DNA of 64,000 bases from a virus. Where the stretch lies: the IMG/VR virus record IMGVR_UViG_3300030106_006795, positions 16,746 to 80,745 of that record; one strand, given 5' to 3'. This document shows, in pieces, positions 1 to 42,981 of this stretch; within the stretch, counting starts at the first letter, position 1; each line of letters starts with the position of its first letter. The position numbers and the translations under genes were made by a program. The notes beneath the pieces were generated by a model that was not told the origin of the DNA, searched no databases, and saw only the letters and a list, made by a program, of their open reading frames with translations.

Positions 1-3000
1 ACTGTCTTGATCTGCGGTGATAGTGCAATCATTGTCAACTACATGGAATTGAATGTTTTGATTTATGTCTCTACCAAGAATAAGTCTGGGGTTAAGAGTT
101 TGAGTAGAGTTTAATATCCGAACACTGTCAAAATCACCCGTTCCTACTACATCTAGCTCTACAGCAGGACTGTTTGATCCAATACCGACATTGCCAGCGT
201 TAGTAATGGTGAATAACTCTGTTCCTCCATCACTATTTAAGAAACGAGTTCTATTAGAACCGCCCCTAAATTCTAATTGGTCGCTAATTGCTGATGCTCT
301 AAATAAATCTGCGCGAACTGTTGATAAGTCGAAGTTAACAATATCCGAATTAGTAACCTTTATCGCCTCAGAGCCGTTACCTGCAATGGTTAAGCGACCA
401 CTCTGTAAATGGAGTTTTGTGTCAGGATCAGTCGTTCCAATTCCAACATTACCTTCTGCTGTAAATCTTACTACTTCAGTTGCAGCAGAAACTCCGCTTG
501 TGGTGATTCTTACATAATCACCTCCTATTTTTAATGGGTGCGGGGTAGAGGTATCTCCATCAGAGGCTAATATCCTACCCTCATTCCCAACAGAGGGAGT
601 TATAGTTATAGCGTCATTGTTTGCTGGATATCTGATTTTTAAAGAACCATTCTCTATCTTTGCGGCAGTTCCTCCATCGCCATTAACATGAAGGGCTGCT
701 GTAGGAGCGGTTATTCCTACACCTACTCTATTATTACCTCTGTTTATGACTAAAGCATCTGAACCTAATGCTGTATTCCTAATACGGAACATGTCATTAT
801 TAGCTCCACCAGCATATTGGTTTTCAATCTCCCAAGTAGTGTATGTTCCTGCTAGTTTAAGGTGTGGACCAGCACTCCCAGCCCCAGTTACGAGAATGTT
901 TCCTGAGACCGCAAGTTTTTCAGATGGATCAGTTGTTCCAATACCAACATTTCCACCTTTTGTAAATCTTACTTTTTCAGAACCTTCAAAAAAGAAACCT
1001 AAATCACTATCATTTGATGCTTGTCTAATCCCAGCTATATGAATATCTGCATCATAATTACGCAGTTGAATCATCGCCATCGTATTAGTAGTCTCGCTTG
1101 TATTCTCTATGAGAATACCTTCACTACCCCAATCTCCACCGCTACCTCCAGCAAAACCTGTGTCGGTGTTAACGAATTCTAAATGAAGCTTTTGCGCTGG
1201 ATTAGTTGTTCCTATACCAACTCTTTGTGAACTATCTATAGTTATTGTTCTAGTTGACTCCCTATATATGCCTATTGCATCATTATAAACATTATTTGTG
1301 ATTCCACCGATGCGAACTTCATTGGGTGTATCAGCAAAACTAAAATGAGCGCCATATGCTGCATTTGAAGGATCGTTTATTCTTAAGCCTCCTGTGCTAC
1401 CAACGGCATTGCCACCTATAGTAAGGTCATATACAGGATCAGTTGTTCCTATACCTAAACCAATAGAATTCAATCTAGCTTTAGTTCCACCACCATTAAA
1501 TTCTAAATAATTATTAGTTGACCAAGAAAGTTTTGAGTTACCACCACCACCAAACTGGATGTTAGTAGAGGATAGCACCATCGCAGAGGATGCACTATCA
1601 ACTGCGAATCTCATCTGAGATAAAGGGTCGCAATATATTCCATTGTTTGATCCAGCGAATTGAATCGCCATGTCAGAGCTACTGCCTCCATCTAATATTA
1701 TATCCTCACCAGATATGCCTCCTACGACTTGAAGTGGTTTGCTAGGATCAGTTGTTCCTATGCCGACATTGCCAGCATTTGTGATAGTCATTCTGGTGCC
1801 TGTCGTGCCACCATTACAAGTATCAAAGAAAATATCACTGCTATTATTATTACCACCATAAATATGAGTATCAGTGGTGCTACTCATACCTATGATGTCA
1901 ACTGGAATAGAACCGCCATAATACCCCTTCAATGTTTTACCCTGCGGGATTAAAATGTTGCCGTCAACGTGTAGTAGTTCAGCAGGTCCAGTTGTTCCAA
2001 TGCCAACTCTACTAGTAGAACCTTGAACGAAAACAATATTACTATTGTTTACGCTCATGCTAACATTCTGACCTGCTTTAGCATTAATAGCTGAAGATCC
2101 AGCAGGGCTTTGCTTTAAAGCATAACTTGTTGAAGTAGCATTATCATAATGAGATAAATATAAATAGTCGGTTACATGAGATCCAAATCTTGCCCTGCCC
2201 AAGAAAACATTTTGGTCGGTATCAGCTTTAACATCTAGCAATCCTTGAGGAGTTATCGATCCTATACCAACATCGCCATCAGGTTTTATAGCCACTCTAG
2301 CCTCACCACTTGTGGCTAAATAAACACTTCCAAGAGCTTGTCTGTTAGTAACATAAGCATCATGACCATTGTTTCCAATAGTCATACCCACGTTGCTCAT
2401 AGTTCCATAGCTTGTCGTGCTATTCTGGAATTGAAGATAAGCTACTGTCCCCGTGCTTCTTAAATGTGCTAGAGCGTATCCACCGCTAATGGTTAAAGCT
2501 CCATACTCAGGATCATTACCATTATTTTCTATAATAATATTATTAGTTGTAATATTACCCTCATCAGTAACAGTCTGCAATGTATCTGACTCAAAAGCAG
2601 AAGTTCCAGTAACAACAGGATTACCATTTACAGTAATACCATTTGTAAAGTTTCCACTATTTCCATAAATAACATCGTATTTATTGGATGATTTTCCGAG
2701 ATCTGCTCCTCCATTTGTTACAGGATAAAGAGTAGAATAATGGCGACCATCATAATATTTATCAATATAATATTGACCACCGTAAGATAAGTCATTGCCA
2801 AGATCGTAATCAGCGGCATAAAGATTGTTTATTCTGAAATAGCTTCCCGCTTTAGCAAAACTATATCTTAATCCAGTGGTGGCATTTGCACCTCCTGCAT
2901 TACTTGCGATTCTTGCTATAAGTGCAGTTTTAGTATTCTCAGTTGTATCAAGAATGGTTTGCCATGCACCCGTTCTCAATGCCTCTATTTTGACATGAGT

Positions 3001-6000
3001 GGCTCTAAATGGATTAGAGCCAAATATTATAGCCGCTTGTGCGCTGTAGTTTAAAGATTTAACACCGTTGAAGTATAATTCAATAACACCAGTGCTTGCT
3101 ACGCCAGTTGTTATGTCTCCATCAGGACCAGAATCAGTATACCAACTTCCTATAGTATGGTTATTAGCTTGGAAGGCTCTATCAAAATCTCCAGTGCCAG
3201 CTTCATTACTATATGTATATGATCCTGCACTTCCTCCTCTTGTTTTATATAAACCAGAGGTTGCTATTGTTACACCAGCCCACTTTGTGAAACCAGCAAG
3301 GTCGTTCATTAATAACGCATTCTGGAATCCGTAATCTTCTGTAGATGTGCTTGCAAAAAACCCATCTATTGTTGTGCATGGACCAGTTCCAAATTGAGTT
3401 CCTAATAATCCTGATTGTGTTCTTATGATTCCGTTGACATCTAGAGGATAAGAAGGAGTAGAATCTCTAATACCAACACTATTAGCAGAAGCATCTACAA
3501 ATAAAGTATCTGTATCAACATAGAAATCACTACTGGAATTAAACCCTCCGAGAGTAGAATTATTTTTTCTGAAAAATAGTTGGTTACCATTATCACAATT
3601 TAAATATGTATCACCACCCGCACTCTGCAATAAAGCATAACTAGCTGAAGAGGCATTATCAATATGAGCAAATCCAGCATAATCACCACCGATCATAAAG
3701 CCAACATGAGCTTTACCAATAACAGCAGAAACATCTGTATCTGGTGCAACCTCTAATTTTTCTGTTGGATTAGTTGTTCCTATTCCGACATTGCCAGCAT
3801 TTGTTATACTAAAAGATTTACCTCCACCCGCAGTTGCTGTTTGAAATACATAATGACTAGCACTAGAACCAGCATTTTCAATAGCAAGCCCCGCATTTAT
3901 ATTGGAAAAAGTTTGTGTGCTATTACCTCCATATATATGAACCAGACTTTCTGGAACAGTTGTTCCTATGCCTACTTTACCATCACCACTAATACTAATT
4001 CTTTCACTACCGCCAGCATGTAACTGCAACCTAGATGGAACTCCATCAGTTCCCACTTGGTATTCATTTCCTGCGATTCTGTAAAATTTACCAGCAGAAA
4101 TTTTAATATTTCCGTCTACCTCTAACTTTGTATCTGGATCAGTTACTCCTATACCGACCTGACCCGCAGTATCGATACGCATAAACTCCGTATCGGTGCT
4201 TCCAGCCGTTCCAAGGAATATAAACCCTCCGTTAGCAGCATTAGCTCTAGAGTAGAGATAAGTATATACTCCAGCTTTTTCTATGTCAGTATAATGATCT
4301 GTTAAATCAGAATCTTTTAATCTTAAAGTAGGAACTGATGAAGCTATCTCTAGTTCTGCACTAGGGTCATCTGTTCCTATTCCAACATTGCCATCATGAT
4401 CTATACGCATCCTTTCGGTTGCGGCAGGATAATCGCTTCCTGTTATTTCATTTGTTGGTGAAGTGTGAAAGGTAAGCTCTGCATCATATCCTCCAGTTCT
4501 CTGGGCAAATATAGCAGATCTAGGATAACCTACTGTTGAATTTATAAACTCTATGCCACAATATGAGCCATCTGAATTGTTTGGGTTATCAATTGTTAGT
4601 ATTGCACCTTCAGTAGTCCCAGCTCTACTAACATGTAAACTTGTTCTAGGATTAACTGTCCCTACTCCTACATTGTCACCATTAGAAGCATTTAAAGCTA
4701 ACTTACCATCATGCTGTAATGTTATTTCTGCTCCTCCATTACCATCATAGGTTATAAAGAAATCACTATCTGTAGAGTCATCTGCAAAATATTGACGAAC
4801 GGTTTCTGTAGGGTTTGTGAAGATTAATCCTAAACTATTTCCAGTAGCATTACCTACATGAAGTCTAGATTGTGGACTAACTGTTCCTATACCAAATCTT
4901 TGATTTTCGGAATCAAACCTCGCCATTTCCACATCAGCTTCTCCTGCTTGGAAAATGATGTCATCTTCATCTCTATTTGATTGTAAATAAAGATGATTAA
5001 CTCTAGGTGTGATTATGCTTTTAGCTGAAGTTCCACTTACATAAATTGTTCCTCCATTTGTATTCCCAAGGGTCAAACTACCAGCGCCATTTGCTCTTAC
5101 TTGTCCATTATTTTGAACAAGAAGATCGGCAACTGTTATATCATTAGTTGTAGTCGCACCTCTATCAGTAACAGTCTGTAAGGTGTCTGACTCTGTTCCT
5201 GCCACATCTCCAGAAAGAAGATAACCTGTCCCCCCCAATGTGAGTCTTCCTCCAAATCCTGTTCCACCTGCATCTCCAGAGATTTCCAGAGTATGTTTGC
5301 CAGCAACATTCCCTGATATAATAGTAGTGCCTCCCAAGAACGCAGATTCCTCGCAATCTAATCCGTAGCGTGGTCCCGTATGAGGAGAACCTGCTGGTCC
5401 TATAGCAAGACCAACGTCAATCATGCCGAATGAACCAGATAGAGTATTTACTTTTATGTTGTTTGTTGTTGTGTTTCCTCTATCAGTAACACTATCTAAT
5501 GTATCTCCCTCTGGTGTTTCACCAGTGAGAACAGCATTGCCGTTTATGTAAAGTCCACTATCAGTTGTAACATAAACGCCGCTTTTAAAATCTAAAAGCA
5601 TTGTATTTGCTCCACTAGACAAGGCAGGAGTTGCAATAGAATCACTAAATACAAAAGCTCCTTGATGACCCTGTTGGACTTTTGAATAATTACCCGCAGT
5701 TACTGCGTCATTTGCTTTAATTTCTTGATGAGCGCCACCTAAAGTTGTTGATCTACTGCCAATAACTGTATTGTTATTTCCTCCTGCAATAGTGTTTTGT
5801 GCGCCACTAATAGTATTAGAAACACCAGCGCCTATAAAATTATATCCTCCATCAGTTAGTTGATATTTAATTTCATTACTTTGTCCTCCAACAATAGAAG
5901 AGTATTTATTGTGAACTTTATTATTGTTACCACCCCCTATGCTTCCTCCAGCCTCTCCAGTAATCTCATTACCTTGTCCTCCAGCTATAGTAGAAGTAGG

Positions 6001-7704
6001 AGAACCACTAATTAAATTATCAAAACCTCCCCCAATAACAGCAAAGTTACTTCCGCTAATATCATTGTTTCTTCCTCCAACACTTACAGAGAATTCACTA
6101 GATGCAATGTCAATCCCAGAGCCTCCTCCAATAAAGTTGGTGCTACCCCCTGTGACCATATTTTCAATTCCAGCAACAATTACATTGTAGTTACCGCTAA
6201 TATAGTTGCCTGAACCACCTATTATAACTGAACCTGTAGCTGGTGAATTATAAATAGTAGGTGTTGTGTCCTCTGGATATTCTCCTGCTCCAATTGTAAT
6301 TGAAGAATTCGGTGCTATTTGAACAGTATCTGAATGATCAAATTTAATTTGTGTTATACCTGCCCCAAGCTTTAAAGCAGTTTCAGATCCGTCATATCTA
6401 ATATCACTTTGTGTTCCGTTTCCTAGATACAGTTTGCCGTCAGCAGGAGTGCTTCCATCCTTGATTCTTACATCACCACAAATAAAAAGTTTTTCTGTAA
6501 AGCCGCCTAATGAATTTGTCCCAAGACCGACTTGGCCTTTTACATATGCGCCGTTTGTGGGAGGGGTTGTTGATCTATATGTAGCGTCACCTATTGATAG
6601 TGAATCTGCTCCCATAGAATTAGAGGTCGTAGACCCTTCATCTGTTACCTCTTGTAAATTTGGTGTGGAGTGAGACGGCTCAGTATGAGTTATTAATACA
6701 GTATCATTAGTGCTTCCAACTGAAGTGTATCCAATGCTGAGATTTGAGCCAGCAACAGCAATTCCTCTAAACTTAAATGGTCTAATAGAATTATCTACAT
6801 AGACTTTTGTTCCCCCTCCCCCTTCAACATTTATGGAATGACCGCCGCTAATTAAAACCCTGTCAGCGCTAGTGGGATCAATGAAGATATCAGTGTTATT
6901 TTGACCATTATCTGGTTGTTCTGCATTGCCAGTTAATGTTCTAAATTCAAATGGAGCAGATGAACCATCTTCGTAAATTTCTGCTGCACTACCTATATTC
7001 GCACAACTAGCTCCAACTGCGGTCTCTCCACTACCGCTAATTAGAATGTATTTATCAGTTTCTGTAACAGTAATATCTCCAGTTCCTTGAATAGCTCTTA
7101 CTCTAACTGGATTTGATTGCGATTCTTTTCCTCCACTAACAAGGATGTGAGCGCTATTTGTAGCTGCCTCATCTCCATTTTCATCTACTCCAACAAGACC
7201 TAATTGTTTAAATTGCCTATCCGAAAGATTAATATTGTCTCTTAAGGTAAGTTCATCAACAACACCTTCGACAAAAGAAAGAACGGGAAAGTAACCAGTA
7301 AACGGTTCTGTATCATTTTGATTTTCTAATTGTTCAAAAATGATTTCTGGAAATTGTGTCTCAGGTTGCTCTTCAGCAGCATCAAATCCTGTAAAATCAG
7401 CACGGGTGATTAAGAAATTCTCTCTATCAATTACAACTTCAACATAATATTTTTTACTTACATCAAGGGGCAAGTTGTGAACTTGCTGCATTTGACCGAT
7501 TACAGCAGCAGATCTATCTAATTGAGAATGAGAAACCCTGTTAAAAATATAACCCTGATTAAAAGTAACATCAAAACTTTCAGGGCTATCGTTACCACCA
7601 TAAACTATTTCAACTTGTGGTTGAAACGGTGTTACGTTATCTAATTCAACACCGATACCATTAACTGGAGTATTAGAGAAGTAGTCGTGTCCTTCTTCAG
7701 CCAT
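1..7704 (-). CDS. Giant tail fibre / adhesin-like protein, >=2568 aa, 3' end beyond the left window edge
   Basis: ATG at 7704 (MAEEGHDYFSNTPVNGIGV...) overlaps the stop of the upstream ORF. The frame is open wherever I translated it, and the ORF track reports no stop for it. It has about 16 'G[N/K/Q]VGIGTTxP' repeats (approx. 170-4900), four 'TLQTVTD[R/E]GxTTxN' motifs (approx. 2570, 5170, 5490, 6650) and a Gly/Asn beta-roll repeat region (approx. 5650-6240) ending in GAFVFSDS. Confidence 0.85.
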   Translation of the reverse strand, partial: MAEEGHDYFSNTPVNGIGVELDNVTPFQPQVEIVYGGNDSPESFDVTFNQGYIFNRVSHSQLDRSAAVIGQMQQVHNLPLDVSKKYYVEVVIDRENFLITRADFTGFDAAEEQPETQFPEIIFEQLENQNDTEPFTGYFPVLSFVEGVVDELTLRDNINLSDRQFKQLGLVGVDENGDEAATNSAHILVSGGKESQSNPVRVRAIQGTGDITVTETDKYILISGSGETAVGASCANIGSAAEIYEDGSSAPFEFRTLTGNAEQPDNGQNNTDIFIDPTSADRVLISGGHSINVEGGGGTKVYVDNSIRPFKFRGIAVAGSNLSIGYTSVGSTNDTVLITHTEPSHSTPNLQEVTDEGSTTSNSMGADSLSIGDATYRSTTPPTNGAYVKGQVGLGTNSLGGFTEKLFICGDVRIKDGSTPADGKLYLGNGTQSDIRYDGSETALKLGAGITQIKFDHSDTVQIAPNSSITIGAGEYPEDTTPTIYNSPATGSVIIGGSGNYISGNYNVIVAGIENMVTGGSTNFIGGGSGIDIASSEFSVSVGGRNNDISGSNFAVIGGGFDNLISGSPTSTIAGGQGNEITGEAGGSIGGGNNNKVHNKYSSIVGGQSNEIKYQLTDGGYNFIGAGVSNTISGAQNTIAGGNNNTVIGSRSTTLGGAHQEIKANDAVTAGNYSKVQQGHQGAFVFSDSIATPALSSGANTMLLDFKSGVYVTTDSGLYINGNAVLTGETPEGDTLDSVTDRGNTTTNNIKVNTLSGSFGMIDVGLAIGPAGSPHTGPRYGLDCEESAFLGGTTIISGNVAGKHTLEISGDAGGTGFGGRLTLGGTGYLLSGDVAGTESDTLQTVTDRGATTTNDITVADLLVQNNGQVRANGAGSLTLGNTNGGTIYVSGTSAKSIITPRVNHLYLQSNRDEDDIIFQAGEADVEMARFDSENQRFGIGTVSPQSRLHVGNATGNSLGLIFTNPTETVRQYFADDSTDSDFFITYDGNGGAEITLQHDGKLALNASNGDNVGVGTVNPRTSLHVSRAGTTEGAILTIDNPNNSDGSYCGIEFINSTVGYPRSAIFAQRTGGYDAELTFHTSPTNEITGSDYPAATERMRIDHDGNVGIGTDDPSAELEIASSVPTLRLKDSDLTDHYTDIEKAGVYTYLYSRANAANGGFIFLGTAGSTDTEFMRIDTAGQVGIGVTDPDTKLEVDGNIKISAGKFYRIAGNEYQVGTDGVPSRLQLHAGGSERISISGDGKVGIGTTVPESLVHIYGGNSTQTFSNINAGLAIENAGSSASHYVFQTATAGGGKSFSITNAGNVGIGTTNPTEKLEVAPDTDVSAVIGKAHVGFMIGGDYAGFAHIDNASSASYALLQSAGGDTYLNCDNGNQLFFRKNNSTLGGFNSSSDFYVDTDTLFVDASANSVGIRDSTPSYPLDVNGIIRTQSGLLGTQFGTGPCTTIDGFFASTSTEDYGFQNALLMNDLAGFTKWAGVTIATSGLYKTRGGSAGSYTYSNEAGTGDFDRAFQANNHTIGSWYTDSGPDGDITTGVASTGVIELYFNGVKSLNYSAQAAIIFGSNPFRATHVKIEALRTGAWQTILDTTENTKTALIARIASNAGGANATTGLRYSFAKAGSYFRINNLYAADYDLGNDLSYGGQYYIDKYYDGRHYSTLYPVTNGGADLGKSSNKYDVIYGNSGNFTNGITVNGNPVVTGTSAFESDTLQTVTDEGNITTNNIIIENNGNDPEYGALTISGGYALAHLRSTGTVAYLQFQNSTTSYGTMSNVGMTIGNNGHDAYVTNRQALGSVYLATSGEARVAIKPDGDVGIGSITPQGLLDVKADTDQNVFLGRARFGSHVTDYLYLSHYDNATSTSYALKQSPAGSSAINAKAGQNVSMSVNNSNIVFVQGSTSRVGIGTTGPAELLHVDGNILIPQGKTLKGYYGGSIPVDIIGMSSTTDTHIYGGNNNSSDIFFDTCNGGTTGTRMTITNAGNVGIGTTDPSKPLQVVGGISGEDIILDGGSSSDMAIQFAGSNNGIYCDPLSQMRFAVDSASSAMVLSSTNIQFGGGGNSKLSWSTNNYLEFNGGGTKARLNSIGLGIGTTDPVYDLTIGGNAVGSTGGLRINDPSNAAYGAHFSFADTPNEVRIGGITNNVYNDAIGIYRESTRTITIDSSQRVGIGTTNPAQKLHLEFVNTDTGFAGGSGGDWGSEGILIENTSETTNTMAMIQLRNYDADIHIAGIRQASNDSDLGFFFEGSEKVRFTKGGNVGIGTTDPSEKLAVSGNILVTGAGSAGPHLKLAGTYTTWEIENQYAGGANNDMFRIRNTALGSDALVINRGNNRVGVGITAPTAALHVNGDGGTAAKIENGSLKIRYPANNDAITITPSVGNEGRILASDGDTSTPHPLKIGGDYVRITTSGVSAATEVVRFTAEGNVGIGTTDPDTKLHLQSGRLTIAGNGSEAIKVTNSDIVNFDLSTVRADLFRASAISDQLEFRGGSNRTRFLNSDGGTELFTITNAGNVGIGSNSPAVELDVVGTGDFDSVRILNSTQTLNPRLILGRDINQNIQFHVVDNDCTITADQDS
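1750..3808. repeat. 37-nt direct repeat pair (1750-1786 and 3772-3808, 2 mismatches) within the fibre gene
   Basis: agttgttcctatgccgacattgccagcatttgtgata vs agttgttcctattccgacattgccagcatttgttata; both encode ITNAGNVGIGTT. Confidence 0.85.
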
Positions 7705-8041
7705 GTGCAAGCCCCTCGTTAAACGCAGAAGGCTCAGTGAAATCAGATTCTATCTTTTGAATCTCTCCTTCTTCGTCAAAATAATATAAACGATCAAACC
7801 AGTTAAATTTCTTAAGGTTGACTTGTTTAATCTCTTTCTCTACATCATTGCCATGAAGGGGCGAGTAAAAATATTTCGTCCCTCCACGTTTTAGAGAACC
7901 ATCAGGCCAGAGGAATTGTTTTTCAGCAAAAAAACAATCCGTCAAAGCGGCATTACGCCAAACTTCAATATATGCAAAATCATTATCAAAGTCGTGCCGC
8001 TTTGTTTCTAGTTTGATTACGTTTTTGACGATAGTTTTCAC
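7697..8041 (-). CDS. Hypothetical protein, coupled to the tail fibre gene
   Basis: 114-aa ORF with a GTG start, GTGTAA motif upstream, stop overlapping the next start. Confidence 0.7.
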   Translation of the reverse strand: MKTIVKNVIKLETKRHDFDNDFAYIEVWRNAALTDCFFAEKQFLWPDGSLKRGGTKYFYSPLHGNDVEKEIKQVNLKKFNWFDRLYYFDEEGEIQKIESDFTEPSAFNEGLAHG

Positions 8042-10469: not shown

Positions 10470-10807
10470 AAAGTAATTGTTTCTGTTTCTCCTGTTTTTG
10501 TATCAACCATAAAAAAATCGTCTACATTGTGCGCTCGATCATCAATCCAGTAGTCATATGACGGTTTGCCTAATCTTAAATCTGTTCTTTTAACACCCCA
10601 CTCATCAAGTTGTTTTCTGGTAAGTTCTGAATAATCTACTCCAGAATAACTACCTCTTGCTGTCCAATATATAATAGTGTGTCCAGCCTCGTAAAGCTTA
10701 TTGAAGAATTCTATTCTTGCTTTTATAGGTCTAGCCTCATCATACGGAGCGGTCCTATTATCATGAGTGCAAATTGTTCCGTCAATATCTACAATGTAAG
10801 TTTTCAT
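10466..10807 (-). CDS. Small HAD-superfamily phosphatase (capsule-biosynthesis phosphatase-like)
   Basis: Motif I DIDGT, motif II WTAR, motifs III/IV GKP..YWIDDR. Confidence 0.85.
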   Translation of the reverse strand: MKTYIVDIDGTICTHDNRTAPYDEARPIKARIEFFNKLYEAGHTIIYWTARGSYSGVDYSELTRKQLDEWGVKRTDLRLGKPSYDYWIDDRAHNVDDFFMVDTKTGETETITL

Positions 10808-11298
10808 TTCAATTTATTTATAATATCTGTAGTGCTAATATTTTCCACAAACGGGATCACTTTTAATATAGCTGGGCCTTTGGCCCTCATTTCTGATTTG
10901 TTTAAAGAGTCCTCATCATAGTCTCCCCCCTTGCACCAAAAATCTGGTTGCAATTCTTTTAAGTGTTTAGAGACTGTTTTGGTATTAAAGATAAAAACAT
11001 AATCTACAGCCTCATGGCAAGCAATGGTGTAAGCTCTCTGCTTTGCAGGTATTATAGGTCTATTATCGCCTTTTAAAGATTTAACGCTTGAATCGCTGTT
11101 AACACCAACAACTAATTTCGAGTTTAAGCTACAGGCATTTTTCATCCCGTATAATAAACTGGCATGTCCAGCATGAAATAAATCAAAACAACCGTTGGCA
11201 AAAATAAAGAATTTTTTTATTCCGCATTTTTCTAATTCTCTAGCGAACCGCCTCTCTCTTTTAATTTCTTCAAAAGAAACTATTTTTTTATGTTTCAT
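10804..11298 (-). CDS. hldC: Heptose-1-phosphate nucleotidyltransferase (RfaE domain II / HldC-like)
   Basis: NGCFDLFHAGH, VGVNSDSSV..LKG..RPI, KGGDY, ISTT. Confidence 0.85.
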   Translation of the reverse strand: MKHKKIVSFEEIKRERRFARELEKCGIKKFFIFANGCFDLFHAGHASLLYGMKNACSLNSKLVVGVNSDSSVKSLKGDNRPIIPAKQRAYTIACHEAVDYVFIFNTKTVSKHLKELQPDFWCKGGDYDEDSLNKSEMRAKGPAILKVIPFVENISTTDIINKLK

Positions 11299-12041
11299 AT
11301 GGTAGCAACCCCTTTCTTTCTAATAACTTTCTGGCAGCAATCTTGAGCAAATAAAATTGCCGTCTCTATATTTTTTGTAGCAGTGTAAGAATAAGCTAAC
11401 GCTGCTAGAAATGTGTCTCCTGCCCCAGAAACATCTCTGACTTCAGAAGGATTTACTATTTTATAATCTTTATAATTATACCAACAGCCCTTTGCTGCTT
11501 TTGTTACAATAATATTGTCTGCTCGGTGCTTCCATTCATTTTCCAAAAATTCTTTTTCATTTACCTTAATAAATGTGAAGTGATCTGCCCAATCAATATT
11601 AAAATTCTTTTTAGTATCTAAAAAGGAAAGGTTGCTTCTTGTGGCTATCTCCCTTAAATTATTTGCTGTCAAAAATCCCTTGTCGTAATCTGAAACGACT
11701 ACAGCGTCATATTCCTCTATATTGTCTGGTAGATTGCCACAATGAGGATAAGTATCTGTATCTACCCTTAAAAACATTTGGTTTGATTGAGAATCAATAT
11801 ATCTTGTCTTATGACCCTCTACCTCATTGGTAAACAAGTCTATTGAGTTCCTATATGGGATATTTTTAAGACTATCCTCATCAATCGCTAGCATATTTTG
11901 ATATACATTACTAGCCATGCCTAAATTTTCTACTCCGTCATCTGGAACAAAAACTGGGACAGGAGCTTCGGGGCAAAGTCTATTTGCTTTTCCATAACAA
12001 AATCTATCGCTACAACTTTCTCCAATAACTAGAAACTTCAT
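11295..12041 (-). CDS. hldA: PfkB-family heptose-7-phosphate kinase (RfaE domain I / HldA-like)
   Basis: RLCPEAPVPV, KTR, RVD, SDYDKG, DVSGAGDTFLAAL. Confidence 0.85.
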   Translation of the reverse strand: MKFLVIGESCSDRFCYGKANRLCPEAPVPVFVPDDGVENLGMASNVYQNMLAIDEDSLKNIPYRNSIDLFTNEVEGHKTRYIDSQSNQMFLRVDTDTYPHCGNLPDNIEEYDAVVVSDYDKGFLTANNLREIATRSNLSFLDTKKNFNIDWADHFTFIKVNEKEFLENEWKHRADNIIVTKAAKGCWYNYKDYKIVNPSEVRDVSGAGDTFLAALAYSYTATKNIETAILFAQDCCQKVIRKKGVATI

Positions 12042-12454: not shown

Positions 12455-12646
12455 TTAATCTTCCGCTTTATCTTTTGCTTTGCCAATGTTCAAAGCAGCC
12501 CAGTCGATTAGACCGTAAACTTTTGCCCAAACAGACCCTTTTTTGGGAGTTGGGGTCGCTGCGGTAATGGCTGAAGCAAGAGCGATTGCGGCAGTTACTA
12601 CGCCGAACCAAGGATTGTCTTCAATTAATTTAATAATAATGTCCAT
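12455..12646 (-). CDS. Small membrane protein, holin-like
   Basis: 63 aa with hydrophobic helix WFGVVTAAIALASAITAATPTP and an amphipathic C-terminus; GTGTAA at 12673-12678. Confidence 0.6.
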   Translation of the reverse strand: MDIIIKLIEDNPWFGVVTAAIALASAITAATPTPKKGSVWAKVYGLIDWAALNIGKAKDKAED

Positions 12647-12698: not shown

Positions 12699-13460
12699 TT
12701 ATTGGTTTACCAAACCCTTTGGCTTTTGCTTATCTTTTAAAAAAGCTCTTTCTTTACCTATTTTTGTAACCTCTTTTGGGTCTTGAGGGCGACCAACAAA
12801 CAAAGCTTTATTTCTCTCTGTAGCCTCTCCGCTTTTTAAGTAGCTAAAAGTAATAGCCTTTCTTTCTGATTTTACGGTTGGAACACCATGATAAGAAGTG
12901 TCAGAATTTACAAAAATGACTAACCTATTATTAAGAGGTTCTAATTCATGTTTAGCTTCTTTCATTGAATCATCCCAAATTTCTAAACATCCTTGGTCTC
13001 TCTCTTTGCAATAGTCTTTTTTATTAAAATAAAATAGCAAAGTTAACTCTTTTCTTAAATTGTTTTCTGGGTGCTTCCGAGCATCACTATGTATCAATTG
13101 ATACGACTCAGGAAGCATTGTTCTCATGCCAGACCACCTCATGCTTTTGTCTGCCTCAATATCTTCTATTCCAGTGATATCTTTTATCTTGTTTAAAAAT
13201 TTGTCATTGTGAAAAAAGCTTACTAAATCTCCAATATTTTTAGGCATTTTCTCTAAATCACTAATAGCTAGCATTCTCTGTTCTAAAATATTTTTCTTTC
13301 CGTTAACTTCTTTATAGCCAGAGTGCCAGAGTGGAGAATCTTTATCGGGCCAATCTTTTTTAATTTGATCTACTAAATTTTCATCTAATAAATCATCAAC
13401 AACCCAAACAGGATATGGATCTTTAATAAAGCTTACTTTATAGTTTGTATTTATCTTCAT
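12699..13460 (-). CDS. 2OG-Fe(II) oxygenase
   Basis: HxD (IHSD), GCLEIWD, NRLVIF, SYHGV and distal R. Confidence 0.85.
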   Translation of the reverse strand: MKINTNYKVSFIKDPYPVWVVDDLLDENLVDQIKKDWPDKDSPLWHSGYKEVNGKKNILEQRMLAISDLEKMPKNIGDLVSFFHNDKFLNKIKDITGIEDIEADKSMRWSGMRTMLPESYQLIHSDARKHPENNLRKELTLLFYFNKKDYCKERDQGCLEIWDDSMKEAKHELEPLNNRLVIFVNSDTSYHGVPTVKSERKAITFSYLKSGEATERNKALFVGRPQDPKEVTKIGKERAFLKDKQKPKGLVNQ

Positions 13461-13463
13461 GCT

Positions 13464-13754
13464 CTAAAGATTTATTGAAATGGGAGCGATCTCCTCTAGT
13501 TCTTCGCAAATCCTGTCGATTTCTGCCTTGTCCATTTTTCTAGCCCTATTTCTTAATTTAGAAACTTCCCATTCAAATTTACAAAACTTCTCATCTTGAT
13601 CGATATTGCATCTTTCTTTGCTATCAAAAATAAAAGTATCAAAAACCTCATACCGAATAGGGTCAATGCATTTTTCAATAGGATCAAATGTAGAATTTCC
13701 TACGACATAATCAAAGATGTCATACCTGCTAACCTTGATTTTAGTTTTTTCCAT
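13464..13754 (-). CDS. Hypothetical protein
   Basis: 96-aa ORF packed in the operon; TATAAT 6 nt upstream of the ATG. Confidence 0.65.
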   Translation of the reverse strand: MEKTKIKVSRYDIFDYVVGNSTFDPIEKCIDPIRYEVFDTFIFDSKERCNIDQDEKFCKFEWEVSKLRNRARKMDKAEIDRICEELEEIAPISINL

Positions 13755-13785
13755 CTAACTATTATAAATGGAAAAATAAAGAATT

Positions 13786-14406
13786 CTACACAATTCTTAT
13801 TCTGCTTCTTATTTTTGAAACGTGTCTTTTCTTTTCTAAAACAGAGCCTCCTTCTCTGCTCCCCGCTCCGTTTGTATTACCCTCAATGGTAACTACATAA
13901 CCCTTTGAGTCTACGTCTTTTACAGCTAGCCCTATGTGAGAGAAAGTAAACACAACAATGTCTCCAGCTTTTATATCTTCGTTTGTGGGCTTGCGTAAAT
14001 CTATACCGCTCGCTCCTTGTTGCTTCGCCCAATTCTCAAAATCCCAAGCTCCAGCCGTTCTAGGTCTCTTAAATGATACATCTTCACCATCTATAGCCTC
14101 TCTTACTAACCAGCAAATAAAAGCAGCGCACCAAGGCCAGCCTTTATCTGCGTCGAGCCATGTAGCAGCTTTATATTCATCAACTCTAGGGCCGCAGTTG
14201 CTTCCGTCAACCTCAGAAACGCCAATCTCTTCACGAGCTAATTTAACCATTTTATCTGGAATGCTACCAGTTATTGTAGTTGTTTCTTTTGTAGATAATT
14301 TAGCCAAAATAGCATTCCAAGTAACAGGTCCATCAGCCCCGTCAGCAGAAACTTCAAGAAGCCTCTGCACTGCTCTAACTACTTCTTTTTTGCCTTTAAA
14401 ATTCAT
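13786..14406 (-). CDS. Endolysin: peptidoglycan-binding domain plus CHAP amidase
   Basis: VRAVQRLL..ADGADGPVTW (PG-binding), PWCAAF catalytic Cys, SHIGLA His, TIEGNT. Confidence 0.88.
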   Translation of the reverse strand: MNFKGKKEVVRAVQRLLEVSADGADGPVTWNAILAKLSTKETTTITGSIPDKMVKLAREEIGVSEVDGSNCGPRVDEYKAATWLDADKGWPWCAAFICWLVREAIDGEDVSFKRPRTAGAWDFENWAKQQGASGIDLRKPTNEDIKAGDIVVFTFSHIGLAVKDVDSKGYVVTIEGNTNGAGSREGGSVLEKKRHVSKIRSRIRIV

Positions 14407-15011
14407 TATTCACATCTCCTGCTAAACCCAGCACATATCGACATTACGATTGATAAAACGATAGCTAATATCATAAAGTCGCTATATTTTTTAATTTTAA
14501 TGTTTAATAATTCAGCTTGCTCTTCATTATAATACATTTTTGTATCCATAATGTTGTTAATAGCATCAATTGTAGGGTCAGTCATTTCATACATTTTAGG
14601 AACTGATGACTTAATCATTTCAATATTATTCGTGTTTCCCCATTCAATTAATTGATTAACATAAATATTTATTTTCTTTTCTTGCTCGAAAACAAACTCA
14701 GCATACTCTACTTCTTTAGGCGTTATATCTTTTTTATAACCTTCTAAATATTCATCCTTATATACTCTCTCTTCTTCTAAAGTTTCTACCATCTCTGCGG
14801 GTGTGATTACCCCATGAGAGGTTTTTACTACTGAATTCACTATAATTACTCCATACCAATCAAAACACATACCTATCTCCATGATTGAAGATTCTGATTG
14901 TCGGGCATTTTCTTTTAACGTGTTTTGGATATTTTCAGTGAGAAGCAATCCTTTGGCAGCGAAGGCCAAACAAATAGCGGCTAAACAATAAACTATAAAT
15001 TTTGGTCTCAT
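14406..15011 (-). CDS. Two-TM protein with a chemoreceptor-type four-helix-bundle periplasmic domain and no cytoplasmic signalling domain
   Basis: TM at aa approx. 5-24 and 180-196. YGVIIVNSVVKTSHG...Y....TPKE...MYEMTDPTIDAINNI resembles 4HB_MCP-type ligand-binding domains. Confidence 0.65.
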   Translation of the reverse strand: MRPKFIVYCLAAICLAFAAKGLLLTENIQNTLKENARQSESSIMEIGMCFDWYGVIIVNSVVKTSHGVITPAEMVETLEEERVYKDEYLEGYKKDITPKEVEYAEFVFEQEKKINIYVNQLIEWGNTNNIEMIKSSVPKMYEMTDPTIDAINNIMDTKMYYNEEQAELLNIKIKKYSDFMILAIVLSIVMSICAGFSRRCE

Positions 15012-15325
15012 TTCTTAATAAATTTTTCTGGATTCTTCTCAAATTTTTGACCCAAACGAACAATTCCTCCTATAAACTCAGGGCTTACTACTCCAATAAT
15101 TCCGTAAGTGATTGCTTTGGTAAGAGAAGAAACATCAGTTTGTTCTAAAACAAACCAAGCAATACCAGCGGCGATAGCTGCCGTTAAAATTCTTTTAAAC
15201 TGTTGTTTTAGTGATAAACCATTGTTGCCCGACAAAAGTCTAGCAAACATCGCAGCGGCTCCAATAAGAGGCACTAACCATCCACCACTCAAGAATTCTT
15301 TGATTAAAGACTTTTCGGGTTCCAT
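15008..15325 (-). CDS. Holin (about 3 TM segments)
   Basis: 105 aa, three hydrophobic segments, charged C-terminal tail, upstream of the endolysin; GTGTAA at 15337-15342. Confidence 0.7.
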   Translation of the reverse strand: MEPEKSLIKEFLSGGWLVPLIGAAAMFARLLSGNNGLSLKQQFKRILTAAIAAGIAWFVLEQTDVSSLTKAITYGIIGVVSPEFIGGIVRLGQKFEKNPEKFIKK

Positions 15326-15342
15326 ATATCTCTATGTTACAC

Positions 15343-15373
15343 AAAAAAAGCCTCCCGCGAAGGAGGCTTTTTT
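15343..15373 (-). terminator. Intrinsic terminator (bidirectional form) after the outer-membrane protein gene
   Basis: A-tract, GCCTCC-loop-GGAGGC, T-tract. Confidence 0.9.
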
Positions 15374-15398
15374 ATTTTATATATAAAACTAATTAAAA

Positions 15399-16079
15399 TT
15401 AGAATTTGTAAGACAATCCTGCGCTAACTCCCCAATCGTGGTCTAGCTCATAAAGAGTGCCGTCAGCATCATTATGAAGATAAGAAGCTTTAGCTCCAAC
15501 AGAAAGGCCATTTCCGATATCATAACCGAGTGCAACACCGATTTCTACAGAGTTGTAATCATTAGCTAAATTAGCAGTTAAAAAAGGAGTTGTTGTAAGA
15601 TTATCAACAAAAAGCTCTAGATCTTTAGAAACAGTAAGTTCAACGCCGTAAGAAGCGCTAGAACCAAGTTGATGCCAAACGGTAGCGGTAACATCTGCAA
15701 GGGCATCACTGTAAGTTAGCCCGAGGCCAAGTTGTTCCCAACCTCCATAAGAAGACTCGATCTTCTTAAAAGAAGCAACTCCTGCGAGATCCTGTCCTAG
15801 AATATTTACTGGACGACCCCAAGAGACTGAAATATCAGTATCTGTATTGCCATCTCCTTCTGCTAGACCAATGCCTACAGAAAGATCCCCATCTGCTACA
15901 GCAGTGCCAAGAGTAAGAGAATAGTTTGTTGTATCTTCTCTAACTGCAAGACCATTGCTAGTTGATAAATTACTAAAAGAAATACCACCTTCAGCAGAAA
16001 CATCTGCGATAGTAGTAGCTTTAACTGCGCCAACCATTGCAGCGCCCATCAGTAGTGTCGTAAGAATTAATTTCTTCAT
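15399..16079 (-). CDS. Outer-membrane beta-barrel (porin-like) protein
   Basis: Sec signal peptide MKKLILTTLLMGAAMVGAVKA, alternating amphipathic strands, C-terminal GLSYKF beta-signal. Confidence 0.8.
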   Translation of the reverse strand: MKKLILTTLLMGAAMVGAVKATTIADVSAEGGISFSNLSTSNGLAVREDTTNYSLTLGTAVADGDLSVGIGLAEGDGNTDTDISVSWGRPVNILGQDLAGVASFKKIESSYGGWEQLGLGLTYSDALADVTATVWHQLGSSASYGVELTVSKDLELFVDNLTTTPFLTANLANDYNSVEIGVALGYDIGNGLSVGAKASYLHNDADGTLYELDHDWGVSAGLSYKF

Positions 16080-16085
16080 AAATTA

Positions 16086-16114
16086 ACTATATATTACAGA
16101 ATTGTAATTGTCAA
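16086..16114 (-). promoter_or_regulatory. sigma70-type promoter, probably leaderless
   Basis: TTGACA-17 nt-TATAGT, ending 6 nt before the ATG at 16079. Confidence 0.75.
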
Positions 16115-16122
16115 GGGAAATA

Positions 16123-16335
16123 TTATTCCTCACCTTCAGGTTCTTCAGGAGCTTCTACAGAGTCTGCAAATTCAGGGGTATTATCAACCACTGGCGGTGG
16201 ACCTGCTTCTGCTCTAATTTTATTTACTAATACAACGGCTGCTTCAGCAACCCCTAATCCCTGTGACTTGACTGCAATATCAATTAATTGAGCCAAGGCA
16301 GAAAGTTCATCATCGGTGAAATCAATAGTTTTCAT
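16123..16335 (-). CDS. Hypothetical small acidic protein
   Basis: 70-aa ORF with a helical core and acidic tail. Confidence 0.7.
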   Translation of the reverse strand: MKTIDFTDDELSALAQLIDIAVKSQGLGVAEAAVVLVNKIRAEAGPPPVVDNTPEFADSVEAPEEPEGEE

Positions 16336-19146: not shown

Positions 19147-19416
19147 TTATTTCCCACTAGGAAAATAAAGTTCTCTTTCTAGTTTTCTGAATCTAGCATC
19201 AGAATGCCAGATCTCATCATTCTGAGGCGTATAGACTCCTTTATTTGTTTGAATCGGAACTCCCTTCTCTAGATTCAGCGTAGAAGGCTGATAGATATTT
19301 AAAACTTGCGTCTTCACGGATGAGTTCGTCGCGCAAGAGGTCAGCACGATCAGGATCACCGCCATCGGCGCGAAGATCTTCGATCTCTTGAATAATTCTT
19401 TTCCTAGTTTTTTCAT
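19147..19416 (-). CDS. Lipoprotein, o-spanin-like
   Basis: Basic N-region, hydrophobic stretch and lipobox LTSC; overlaps the upstream ORF in another frame. Confidence 0.6.
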   Translation of the reverse strand: MKKLGKELFKRSKIFAPMAVILIVLTSCATNSSVKTQVLNIYQPSTLNLEKGVPIQTNKGVYTPQNDEIWHSDARFRKLERELYFPSGK

Positions 19417-19507
19417 GATTATGCCTTAATTCTATGTAGAAGAGCTTATTTTTTAAAGATAAATATAGCTCAATTGATTTTAAAACACTTTTAATTAAGG
19501 TAAGCAT
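19241..19507 (-). CDS. i-spanin-like helical protein
   Basis: 88 aa, amphipathic N-terminus then coiled coil; overlaps the lipoprotein gene as in Rz/Rz1 pairs. The TM segment is weak. Confidence 0.45.
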   Translation of the reverse strand: MLTLIKSVLKSIELYLSLKNKLFYIELRHNHEKTRKRIIQEIEDLRADGGDPDRADLLRDELIREDASFKYLSAFYAESREGSSDSNK

Positions 19508-33869: not shown

Positions 33870-33897
33870 AAGATATTCTCATGAATGTATATGTCAA
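33870..33897 (-). promoter_or_regulatory. sigma70-type promoter heading the replication operon, probably leaderless
   Basis: TTGACA-16 nt-TATCTT, ending 6 nt before the ATG at 33863. Confidence 0.6.
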
Positions 33898-34931
33898 GTC
33901 AACAGTTCTATGTCGTGCCTAACCATCTTATCCACAAGATTAATAAAATTAGTTTTTGGCTCCCAGCCTAGTTCTTTTCTAGCTTTTGTAGAATCTCCCA
34001 AAAGAAGATCTACTTCTGCTGGTCTGTAGAATTTCGAGTCAACCTCCATAAGCAAATCAGTAGAATGATAATATTTTGTATCGATTCCTTCTCCCTCCCA
34101 TCTACAGATTGATCTGTGAAAACCAGCAAAATTAAATGCCTCTTCTACAAATTCTCTGATTGTATGAGTTTCATCTGAAGATAACACATAATCTTTTGGT
34201 TTATTTTCTTGGTTCAACATTTTCCACACACCATCTACAAAATCTTCAGCGTCACTCCAATCTCTTTTTGTATCAACATTGCCTAGCTTTAATGTTTCAA
34301 AAGGACGCTCAGAAACATAATTCTGTGAAATTTCAGCGACTGCCTTCGTTATCTTTCTTGTCACAAATTCCTCTCCTCTTCTAGTCCCTTCGTGATTAAA
34401 TAGCCAACCTTGAACAGCATATAAATTATAAGAGTCCCTGTATACCTTGACTAAATGCCTTGCGGCGCATTTAGAAGCTCCGTATGGACTTCTAGGTCTT
34501 AATGGATGCTCTTCTGATTGTGGTTTACTTACTACGTCTCCAAACTCTTCAGAACTACCAGCATTATAATATCTGCATTCAGGACAATGTTTTCTAATCG
34601 CTTCTAGTTGATGCAGAACAGCCATACAGTTAGTTTGCATGTGATTCACTGGCATTTGCCAACTTGTGCCTACAAATGAATTAGCCGCAAAATTTATAAA
34701 AAAATCGGGTTTGTGTTCAGAGATTACTCTGTCAATGTTTTCAGCATCAGTGACATCTAAATCAATTAAAAAGAATCTTGGGTTATCTAAAACATGATCT
34801 ATATTTTCATGATTTTTAACACTTAACCTACGAACACCCCCTATGATAGTATGCTCTGTATTTTCAAGAAGGTAGTCCACCATGTGACTTCCGTCTTGCC
34901 CAGTCACTCCTGTTACAATTATCTTTTTCAT
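33894..34931 (-). CDS. gmd: GDP-mannose 4,6-dehydratase
   Basis: TGVTGQDGS, PRSPYGASK, FNHEG.RRGEEFVTRKI, RDW, RPAEVDLLLGD. Confidence 0.93.
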   Translation of the reverse strand: MKKIIVTGVTGQDGSHMVDYLLENTEHTIIGGVRRLSVKNHENIDHVLDNPRFFLIDLDVTDAENIDRVISEHKPDFFINFAANSFVGTSWQMPVNHMQTNCMAVLHQLEAIRKHCPECRYYNAGSSEEFGDVVSKPQSEEHPLRPRSPYGASKCAARHLVKVYRDSYNLYAVQGWLFNHEGTRRGEEFVTRKITKAVAEISQNYVSERPFETLKLGNVDTKRDWSDAEDFVDGVWKMLNQENKPKDYVLSSDETHTIREFVEEAFNFAGFHRSICRWEGEGIDTKYYHSTDLLMEVDSKFYRPAEVDLLLGDSTKARKELGWEPKTNFINLVDKMVRHDIELLT

Positions 34932-35776
34932 TTATTTTTAATCCAATCTTCTAAATTATTTTTTGCTTTCCAGCCCAAGTGTTTTTTAGCTAATTCATCG
35001 TTGCATTCTACGCTTTGAGCTTCTCCTTTTTTGTCTTCAAGGTAAGTTATACCAAATGATGGTTTATACAGCTTTGCAGCTTCATTTAGAGAAAATTTTC
35101 TACCCCTTCCTAACTCAAAAATTATTCCATAACTTTTTGTTTCCCATATTTTAATTAAGCCATCAACAATGTCATCAACATGAGTAAAATCTCTTTCTTT
35201 ACTGCCGTCACCATAAATGGTAAGAGGTTTTTTCTCTCTGTGCGCCTTATCCCATTTTGCTATTACGGTGGCGTATTCTCCGTCCTCTATGTGATTAGGT
35301 CCATAAACATTATAAAATCTCGCTATGCTTTGTTTTAATCCATAAGTCTTATCGAATAAAAGGCAAAGCTCTTCTGATGAATCTTTAGTAAATGTATAAG
35401 GGTTTTTAAACTTACCGCTGTGGTGAGAGGATGAGCCAGAAAAAATTACAGGGATTCCAAAAGCCGAACCAAGCTGGCAAATGTTAAATGTTCCAACTAC
35501 ATTTGAGTCAAAATATTTTTTAGGGTGACGAAATGACGGCTGTATGCGAGCGAGGGCGGCTAGATGAAAAATAATACTAGCTCCTTGAATAAGTTCTTGC
35601 ATAGCATCATAATCAGAAATGTCTTGTGAAAGATATTTAACTCCTTCCACATGATTTGTTACAAAGCCTGTAGAGTAGTTGTCAATAGAGGTGACATCAT
35701 AACCCAAAGAAACCAATTTTTTACATAGATTATAACCTATAAAACCAGCACCTCCTGTAACAATAACTTTTTTCAT
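34928..35776 (-). CDS. NAD-dependent NDP-sugar epimerase/dehydratase
   Basis: VTGGAGFIG, HLAA, PYTFTK, RFYNVYGP, GDGSKERDFTHVDD. Confidence 0.9.
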   Translation of the reverse strand: MKKVIVTGGAGFIGYNLCKKLVSLGYDVTSIDNYSTGFVTNHVEGVKYLSQDISDYDAMQELIQGASIIFHLAALARIQPSFRHPKKYFDSNVVGTFNICQLGSAFGIPVIFSGSSSHHSGKFKNPYTFTKDSSEELCLLFDKTYGLKQSIARFYNVYGPNHIEDGEYATVIAKWDKAHREKKPLTIYGDGSKERDFTHVDDIVDGLIKIWETKSYGIIFELGRGRKFSLNEAAKLYKPSFGITYLEDKKGEAQSVECNDELAKKHLGWKAKNNLEDWIKNK

Positions 35777-36555
35777 TTCCAGTCTAAAACTTCATCTATT
35801 TGCTCTTGTATATTAGGAACTTGCATGTCACTTTTCAAACATTTATTTACATAGCTTGATCCTTGGAACTTCATGTTAACAAATTTTTTCAGTTTCATTG
35901 CTTTATTTAATGTCTCTAGTAAGGTTCCTTTAGATATATAATCTTCTGTCCCAACTTGTAGAAACCTAGTTTTCATACCGCTTTCTAGAAGCTGTTTACA
36001 TATTTTAGACCATTGTAGAGTTGTTATTCCGTTCCATAAGTGGTTAACATAACCATCTACAGATTGTTCTTTGTTTTTGGCAAACCAATCCCAAAGAGAA
36101 TATTGAGTATTTAATTCTCTGCCTATAATTGAAGTTCTTATGATCGTTGTATTATCAGATTCTAAAAGGTAATCTGAAGCTAAAATTTTGCTTTTGCCGT
36201 AAGGGTCTGTGGCATCTTTTTTGCAATCTTTTGTGTATCTGTGTTCAGCATTATTTGACCCTATAAATTCGCAGTCCGTGGTTGGGTGAATAACCCTGCC
36301 TTTAAAATTGTTTGCTAAAAATACTGGAAGAAAAAAATTGTTTATTAAGTATTCTTGCTCTTTTGGTTTTTTTTGAGGGATACATCCAAGACAGTTAACA
36401 ACAGCATCTGCTTTAGATTTTAAAATTGTTTTTGTATAATTTAAATCAGGCCATCGGCAGTCGCTTATAGTATCAACTTCCATACCATTTTCTTTTAAAT
36501 ATCTAGAAAGAGTGCTTCCAAGCATTCCTTTATGACCTAAAACCAATACTTTCAT
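35773..36555 (-). CDS. RmlD-like NDP-4-keto-6-deoxysugar reductase
   Basis: LGHKGMLG, TTDCEF, YGKSK, IRTSIIG, WNGIT. Confidence 0.85.
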   Translation of the reverse strand: MKVLVLGHKGMLGSTLSRYLKENGMEVDTISDCRWPDLNYTKTILKSKADAVVNCLGCIPQKKPKEQEYLINNFFLPVFLANNFKGRVIHPTTDCEFIGSNNAEHRYTKDCKKDATDPYGKSKILASDYLLESDNTTIIRTSIIGRELNTQYSLWDWFAKNKEQSVDGYVNHLWNGITTLQWSKICKQLLESGMKTRFLQVGTEDYISKGTLLETLNKAMKLKKFVNMKFQGSSYVNKCLKSDMQVPNIQEQIDEVLDWK

Positions 36556-42980: not shown

Positions 42981-42981
42981 A

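Follow-up and report, generated by a model that had tools for sequence, protein, structure and literature searches.

We report on a lysis cassette in a 64,000-nucleotide stretch of viral DNA (IMG/VR record IMGVR_UViG_3300030106_006795, positions 16,746 to 80,745), hereafter called the window, in which a protein of 201 amino acids (aa) is encoded directly behind a holin. The periplasmic part of this protein, which we call the partner, is almost certainly homologous to the sensor domains of chemoreceptors, and the protein itself is, with good confidence, a holin-linked lysis accessory. The overall reading that we put forward, a holin-timing partner with a chemoreceptor-derived periplasmic input, we regard as plausible, if a little short of probable. 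Lysis time determines burst size and ranks among the main fitness traits of phages, and in this cassette gene order links a holin to a recognisable sensor descended from chemoreceptors.

The cassette consists of three chained open reading frames (ORFs) on the minus strand: a LydA-like holin of 105 aa with three hydrophobic stretches and a charged C-terminus (15008-15325), the partner ORF (14406-15011), whose product has two membrane segments, and a soluble endolysin of 206 aa with a CHAP domain (13786-14406; Pfam CHAP, phrog_9589). The holin stop and the partner start overlap in an ATGA at 15011-15008, and the partner stop and the endolysin start in a TAATG around 14406. An earlier reading of the window (the initial annotation) had described these three ORFs, their coordinates and both overlaps, and all of them were found as described.

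Hydropathy placed the hydrophobic segments of the partner at residues 1-26 and 175-200. Residues 1-26 (14934-15011, minus strand) comprise an N-terminal MRPK and the first transmembrane segment (TM1), and residues 175-201 (14409-14489, minus strand) the second (TM2) and a five-residue tail, SRRCE. Between them, residues 27-174 (14490-14933, minus strand) form a periplasmic four-helix bundle, a remote 4HB_MCP homologue as judged by hhalign, profile searches and an AlphaFold2 (AF2) model. The AF2 model is all-helical (residues 3-65, 71-93, 98-126, 130-135 and 137-196; mean pLDDT 85.7). In it, TM1 runs directly into a long helix and three more helices follow, the last of which continues into TM2. 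The model of a relative with about 20% identity (pLDDT 87.8) has the same plan of TM1, four helices and TM2. The median net charge is +2 at the N-terminus, -8 in the periplasmic part and +2 in the tail, and since the ends are basic and the middle is acidic, the bundle should face the periplasm. Residues I13, F17 and G21 are nearly invariant in a 40-sequence superfamily alignment. The five-residue tail is lineage-specific, relatives having basic tails of up to 39 residues. Neither HAMP nor MCPsignal was matched in the partner, which ends five residues past TM2, and a search for fused or longer partner forms found none, which is weak evidence. The layout proposed in the initial annotation, with TM1, a helical periplasmic part, TM2 and an end of about five residues, was borne out by hydropathy and the AF2 model; its claim that HAMP and signalling domains are absent was confirmed, only SRRCE being left after TM2.

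The partner gene is real. Among the close homologues listed, 118 of 120 are exactly 201 aa long. Over 78 gene copies, the ratio of nonsynonymous to synonymous substitution rates (dN/dS) comes to about 0.07; dS is saturated, so that such ratios are rough. Within the protein, constraint is strongest on periplasmic helix 1 (dN/dS 0.028; membrane segments 0.11-0.18).

The relationship to chemoreceptors was recovered by profile methods. A profile built from 27 close homologues was searched against 1.84 billion representative proteins and matched 50 of them, including short relatives of 195-257 aa. Four of the 50 are proteins of 362-541 aa that carry 4HB_MCP_1 and MCPsignal, three of them with HAMP as well (hmmsearch E 1e-6 to 1e-4), and two shorter proteins from the same search also carry 4HB_MCP_1 well above threshold. 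Because membrane segments can inflate such scores, both were cut from the profile and the search was repeated. The trimmed whole-family profile matched true methyl-accepting chemotaxis proteins (MCPs) at E 6e-10 to 7e-6 (full library size), and a trimmed profile restricted to the window lineage did so at E 7e-4 to 0.29. With hhalign, the window lineage (A1) matched five MCP-type proteins (A5) at 98.4% (E 4.3e-15, 149 columns, 26% identity), and a distant partner lineage (A2) matched the same proteins, independently of A1, at 98.1% (E 8e-14). These two phage lineages, about 20% identical, match each other at 99.8% in profile-profile comparison. Residues common to the partner and the MCPs are D51, Y53, K63, G67, Y92, E100 and P146.

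Structural comparison gave the same picture at lower significance. The top rows of a Foldseek search against the PDB were the sensor domains of Tar, NarQ, Adeh_2942, MCP2201, Tsr and Vc1313 (E about 0.1), and no PDB entry reached E 0.001. Sensor domains of chemoreceptors and histidine kinases rank highest among the structural matches, which is the outcome that had been named beforehand as a test of the resemblance. In BFVD the search matched a single 4HB-MCP-domain fragment (E 2e-3), whose label gives an ssRNA phage as its source, and nothing annotated as a lysis protein. A sequence search of solved structures with the A1 and A7 profiles gave chance or designed-repeat matches only, and a language-model look-up, which we take as a lead only, pointed to 4HB_MCP_1/TarH clusters. 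The four-helix-bundle likeness first noticed by eye is therefore upheld by the hhalign score of 98.4%, the profile without membrane segments and the plan of the AF2 model.

The link of the partner to the holin was followed across phages in a set of 162 partner genes of at least 150 aa (161 loci and the window; 105 distinct sequences), sorted into five clusters at 50% identity or more. A LydA-like holin lies directly upstream in all 155 loci with room for one, in all five clusters, and the two genes overlap by 4 nt in 152 of the 155. Homologues of the partner are thus linked to lysis genes, as the initial annotation implied. What comes after the partner varies. In the cluster that includes the window, 128 of 134 loci have a CHAP endolysin next; in the other four clusters none of the 16 loci does, and structural genes follow there, for example a head-tail adaptor. 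The holin-partner pairing holds also where the endolysin is not adjacent, and since it is kept with or without the endolysin, the conserved unit is holin plus partner. The unit of holin, sensor and endolysin envisaged at the outset accordingly stands for its first two members and not for the endolysin, which is absent next to the partner in four of the five clusters. Neither the partner nor its relatives and short forms (the window protein and nine others) matched a lysis family in PHROG or Pfam. Prediction of a complex of partner (A7) and holin (A6) returned a score of 0.00 in two runs made without controls, a result that bears neither way on binding.

Seen from the holin, the partner comes in several sizes. 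The holin-side set was the best 80 of 420 IMG/VR viral contigs encoding a holin relative. A partner of 198-202 aa with two TM segments and a four-helix bundle was present at 15 of these 80 loci, a two-TM partner of 79-81 aa at 10 and one of 49-57 aa at 31, and no two-TM partner was found at the remaining 24. Every one of the 56 two-TM partner genes has the 4-nt overlap with the holin stop. The 81-aa protein of locus L220 is in effect the window protein without residues from about 30 to 155 (alignment 25.7 standard deviations above shuffles): its first 15 residues are identical to those of the window protein, TM2 and the tail are nearly so, and the cassette keeps the window order of outer-membrane-protein (OMP)-like gene, holin, partner and CHAP endolysin. 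Other short forms resemble full-length partners in TM1 and TM2 (z 7-11). Pooled dN/dS values of 0.09-0.30 for the short partners, from small samples, indicate purifying selection.

One pair of loci illustrates the variation in the partner. L160 and L164 have identical holins and flanks that are 97-98% identical, with a partner of 202 aa in L160 and one of 51 aa in L164. In the stretch where they differ no nucleotide similarity is detectable: one partner gene cleanly takes the place of the other, and the slot behaves like an interchangeable cassette. Since the membrane hairpin remains where the sensor is absent, we take it to be the conserved, holin-associated core; and since the holin also occurs alone, the partner is an accessory, which fits a regulator and not an essential hole-former or a spanin. 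The periplasmic bundle would then be an optional module, strongly constrained and of ligand-binding descent, for which input is the simplest reading. That sensor-less variants keep both membrane segments at the same place gives indirect support to an output within the membrane.

The same variants lend weight to a rival explanation, in which the partner is a constitutive antiholin or co-holin whose membrane helices alone set timing, the bundle being a spacer or dimerisation domain. Sensor-less partners of 49-81 aa occupy the same position with the same overlap at 41 of the 80 loci, so the basic job needs no bundle, and the residues shared with MCPs may be structural. Timing pairs of two membrane proteins are also known, for example Ms6 Gp4/Gp5 in the portion of the published account that we used (PMC6116114). 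Were the bundle just a spacer, one would hardly expect it to retain the conserved positions of a ligand-binding family across lineages about 20% identical, and the stronger constraint on periplasmic helix 1 than on the membrane segments likewise speaks against it. We consider the constitutive explanation unlikely on balance, though far from negligible.

A second rival makes the partner a decoy in host signalling: a truncated receptor that joins host receptors or kinases, or soaks up ligand, its adjacency to the holin reflecting late co-expression. Truncated receptors could form mixed dimers, and the protein is in effect a chemoreceptor that ends after TM2. However, all five divergent clusters keep the translational coupling to the holin without exception, and a decoy leaves the sensor-less hairpins at the same place unexplained. 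A search of 185,579 species genomes with the family motif found no relative of the partner, and thus no close host receptor is in evidence. We hold the decoy to be very improbable.

For the holin-timing partner with a chemoreceptor-derived input, we envisage the following mechanism. The two membrane helices of the partner form its conserved working core. Most likely they make contact with the holin in the inner membrane, or pair with one another in a dimer, and such packing would shift the trigger time of the holin, giving the partner an antiholin-like or timing-modulator role. The loop between the helices is, in the window lineage, a four-helix bundle almost certainly descended from a 4HB_MCP ligand-binding domain; its occupancy would displace TM2 relative to TM1 as in chemoreceptors. 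Because there is no HAMP or kinase-control domain, the signal can pass only through the TM1/TM2 hairpin, and hence to the holin, the route that the initial annotation had suggested. Lysis timing would then depend on a periplasmic cue. From the anatomy, homology, linkage, modularity and selection described above we infer holin contact, ligand binding and an effect on timing. Cue-dependent control of lysis is offered tentatively, as somewhat doubtful. More doubtful again is a ligand-gated lysis clock, in which a periplasmic chemical cue would advance or delay lysis with the holin as the output of the receptor; with the same reserve, the sensor would be a plug-in on a two-helix partner, gained, lost or swapped between phages about 97% identical.

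The bundle could alternatively serve lysis inhibition, detecting a phage-derived or envelope-damage signal (e.g. superinfection) and delaying the holin. The partner is accessory and often lost, as expected for a conditional regulator, and T4 RI binds holin T and responds to superinfection according to the parts of two reports that we drew on (PMC11413866, PMC8385771). Yet the domain descends from a family known for binding small ligands, the partner shows no similarity to RI and no PHROG or Pfam lysis-inhibition match, and this holin, with its short loops, lacks a large periplasmic domain for the partner to bind. We judge such a role improbable.

Several observations count against the holin-timing partner with a chemoreceptor-derived input, and they are best considered together. 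The partner is a remote homologue of 4HB_MCP_1 (PF12729) that falls below the Pfam gathering threshold: two of 24 short relatives match 4HB_MCP_1 in the right register at a sub-threshold 16-17 bits (threshold 27). The positions at which the partner agrees with MCPs are conserved throughout its family and may serve structure, not the binding of a ligand, and the predicted fold gives a match that does not discriminate. The partners of 49-51 aa resemble full-length partners weakly (z 2.7-4.2) and so lend weak support to a single origin of the size series. The 24 of 80 holin loci without a partner mean that the holin works without one, and comparison of holins with a full, short or no partner revealed no class-specific positions. 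Holin function itself is assigned, provisionally, from sub-threshold family matches and neighbourhood. Finally, the evidence for expression consists of three short contigs from RNA libraries, which may include DNA. For the window partner itself, Pfam gave no match even at E 1, and PHROGs likewise gave none.

The assignment of the flanking genes rests on family matches of differing strength. The window holin scored 17.8 bits against Pfam Phage_holin_3_3, below the cutoff of 28.4. Eight of eight diverse members of the holin family matched Phage_holin_3_3 (best E 9.9e-6), and all eight matched the holin family phrog_6384 (best E 3.1e-6). In different phages the family adjoins two unrelated peptidoglycan hydrolases, CHAP and Amidase_2. 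Its loops are short and form no large periplasmic domain, and holin identity is 56-87% where partner identity drops to about 20%. By its matches to Pfam CHAP (E 6.2e-8, 33.5 bits, cutoff 26) and to the endolysin family phrog_9589 (E 4.3e-16), the 206-aa protein is a soluble endolysin. It has a weakly peptidoglycan-binding-like N-terminus, and hydropathy revealed no hydrophobic segment, signal or signal-anchor-release (SAR) segment.

An overlapped, out-of-frame pair with Rz/Rz1-like architecture lies at 19147-19507 on the minus strand and is recognised by architecture alone. It encodes a helical protein of 88 aa (19241-19507, minus strand) and a lipoprotein of 89 aa whose lipobox reads LTSC (19147-19416, minus strand). 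No PHROG match was found for the pair, which adjoins the holin cluster in four other loci (L085, L087, L090 and L163). It probably serves the outer-membrane step of lysis.

The presence of this pair bears on whether the partner could itself be a unimolecular spanin (u-spanin). Superficially it recalls T1 gp11, with an N-terminal hydrophobic, signal-like segment (Cys9 and Cys14 in the partner), a C-terminal TM segment and a place in the lysis cassette. The consulted part of the u-spanin survey (PMC6139136) defines such proteins by an N-terminal lipoprotein signal with a lipobox, a beta-rich periplasmic domain, no periplasmic Cys and a C-terminal TM segment, and reports a periplasmic Cys in 0 of 58. 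Of these features the partner has only the C-terminal TM segment. Its periplasmic part is helical and includes Cys49, the basic residues at its two ends indicate that both termini are cytoplasmic, and the separate Rz/Rz1-like pair is present in the same phage. The lipobox is absent (IVYC, AAIC), relatives such as that of L150 have no N-terminal Cys, and the candidate was rejected; a u-spanin is extremely unlikely.

Upstream of the holin, a consensus scan and the sequence identified a terminator-like GC-rich hairpin followed by a T run (15351-15363, minus strand), between the OMP-like gene and the holin. Directly after it stands a GTGTAA word (15337-15342, minus strand), 11 nt 5' of the holin ATG. 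The initial annotation had placed the cassette behind a GTGTAA motif; the word is there, and its counts give it no significance. GTGTAA occurs 15 times on the minus strand of the window and 13 times on the plus strand, and a longer word, TTTTGTGTAA, occurs once, with at least one match in 37 of 100 shuffles. GTGTAA may be a phage promoter word, although these simple counts give no support for it. GTGTAA(C/T) also stands 10-35 nt 5' of several minus-strand starts (15342, 12678, 48021 and 8068).

The OMP-like gene (15399-16079, minus strand) lies directly upstream of the holin, a position kept in most loci of the window lineage. It encodes 226 aa with a signal peptide and weak matches to outer-membrane beta-barrels (OMP_b-brl E 0.0015), and its protein identity is 41-100% where holin identity is 84-100%. 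It appears to be a fast-evolving, phage-encoded outer-membrane protein beside the lysis genes. On the other side, a 63-aa protein with a single TM segment (12455-12646, minus strand; phrog_9685, unknown function, E 5e-5) is encoded a few genes past the endolysin in most loci; in L163 and L224 its gene is close to that of the holin. Possibly it is a further small membrane component of lysis.

The window has 35% G+C and is part of a large genome from an uncultured marine phage. Among its gene products are DnaE, DnaB, primase, RecA, ribonucleotide reductase, tail fibre-like proteins and many enzymes of sugar-nucleotide metabolism. Sugar-nucleotide genes stand together with carbamoyltransferase/ATP-grasp genes in one long run (33894-44526, minus strand), and heptose-pathway-like kinase and cytidylyltransferase genes lie at 10804-12041; this phage apparently makes a heavy investment in the chemistry of surface glycans. 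At the start of the window (1-7710, minus strand) is an open-ended ORF that codes for more than 2570 aa. Searches of a cultured-phage collection gave no match to the partner protein, the holin or 4 kb of window DNA, and no tRNA was found within the window, which therefore offers no host clue of that kind. The phage lineage is present in marine samples from several studies. One DNA run, labelled as from an organism and not a metagenome, has 96% of the sampled words of the cassette (13400-16200) at a contig depth of about 22-32x, and may hint at the host or at an association. The RNA-library contigs mentioned above, three short ones from two metatranscriptome runs, cover 14367-14530, 14637-14790 and 15322-15474.

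Among open-access papers and preprints, supplements excluded, we found no precedent for a 4HB_MCP or chemoreceptor ligand-binding domain associated with a phage holin, and nothing relevant was found in the open-access literature on phage-encoded sensor domains and lysis timing. To our knowledge, the few known lysis-time regulators (T4 RI, P1 LydB and dual-start antiholins) use no recognisable ligand-binding domain. With the 4HB_MCP_1/TarH domains (Vc1313-LBD, MCP2201-LBD, Tar, Tsr and NarQ) the partner shares TM1, an antiparallel bundle of about 150 residues and TM2. It differs from these receptors in lacking HAMP, methylation helices and any signalling or kinase domain, and in being phage-encoded and translationally coupled to a holin.

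One of the nearest known systems is T4 RI with holin T, where, in the portions of the T4 literature drawn on here, a nonessential phage protein uses a periplasmic domain to relay outside information to the holin. The signal peptide of RI is cleavable, and its target on T is a large periplasmic domain, whereas the partner is an integral protein with two TM segments and the holin beside it has short loops; no relation of sequence or fold between RI and the partner was detected. P1 offers a parallel in gene order. Its antiholin gene lydB directly follows the holin gene lydA in an operon unlinked to the endolysin, as stated in the consulted sections of PMC9025707; here too the holin is LydA-like, the gene directly downstream is lysis-associated and the pair may lie apart from the endolysin. 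The same sections describe LydB as having no predicted membrane segment or known homologues, which sets it apart, by description, from a partner with two segments and a periplasmic domain. In Ms6, adjacent small membrane proteins, Gp4 and Gp5, interact and jointly set lysis time, each being dispensable for viability, according to the part of the report available to us (PMC6116114). The host envelope there is a different one, and in that account neither Ms6 protein has a sensor domain.

Set beside these systems, the partner would be new in two respects, as far as its sequence and gene order can tell: as a holin-timing partner with a new type of input, and as a chemoreceptor sensor with a new type of output. 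The question of whether phages read their chemical environment to time lysis becomes directly testable, nature itself providing controls in the sensor-less version of the cassette and in copies of the holin that have no partner. If the coupling is true, the piston-type signal of chemoreceptors would be readable by a membrane protein alone, without HAMP, which would interest receptor mechanists, and a ligand-triggered lysis switch would be of potential use in synthetic biology. If the ligand-gated lysis clock is true, abundant marine phages would have a new small-molecule input to lysis timing, and the most common bacterial sensor fold a new class of output.

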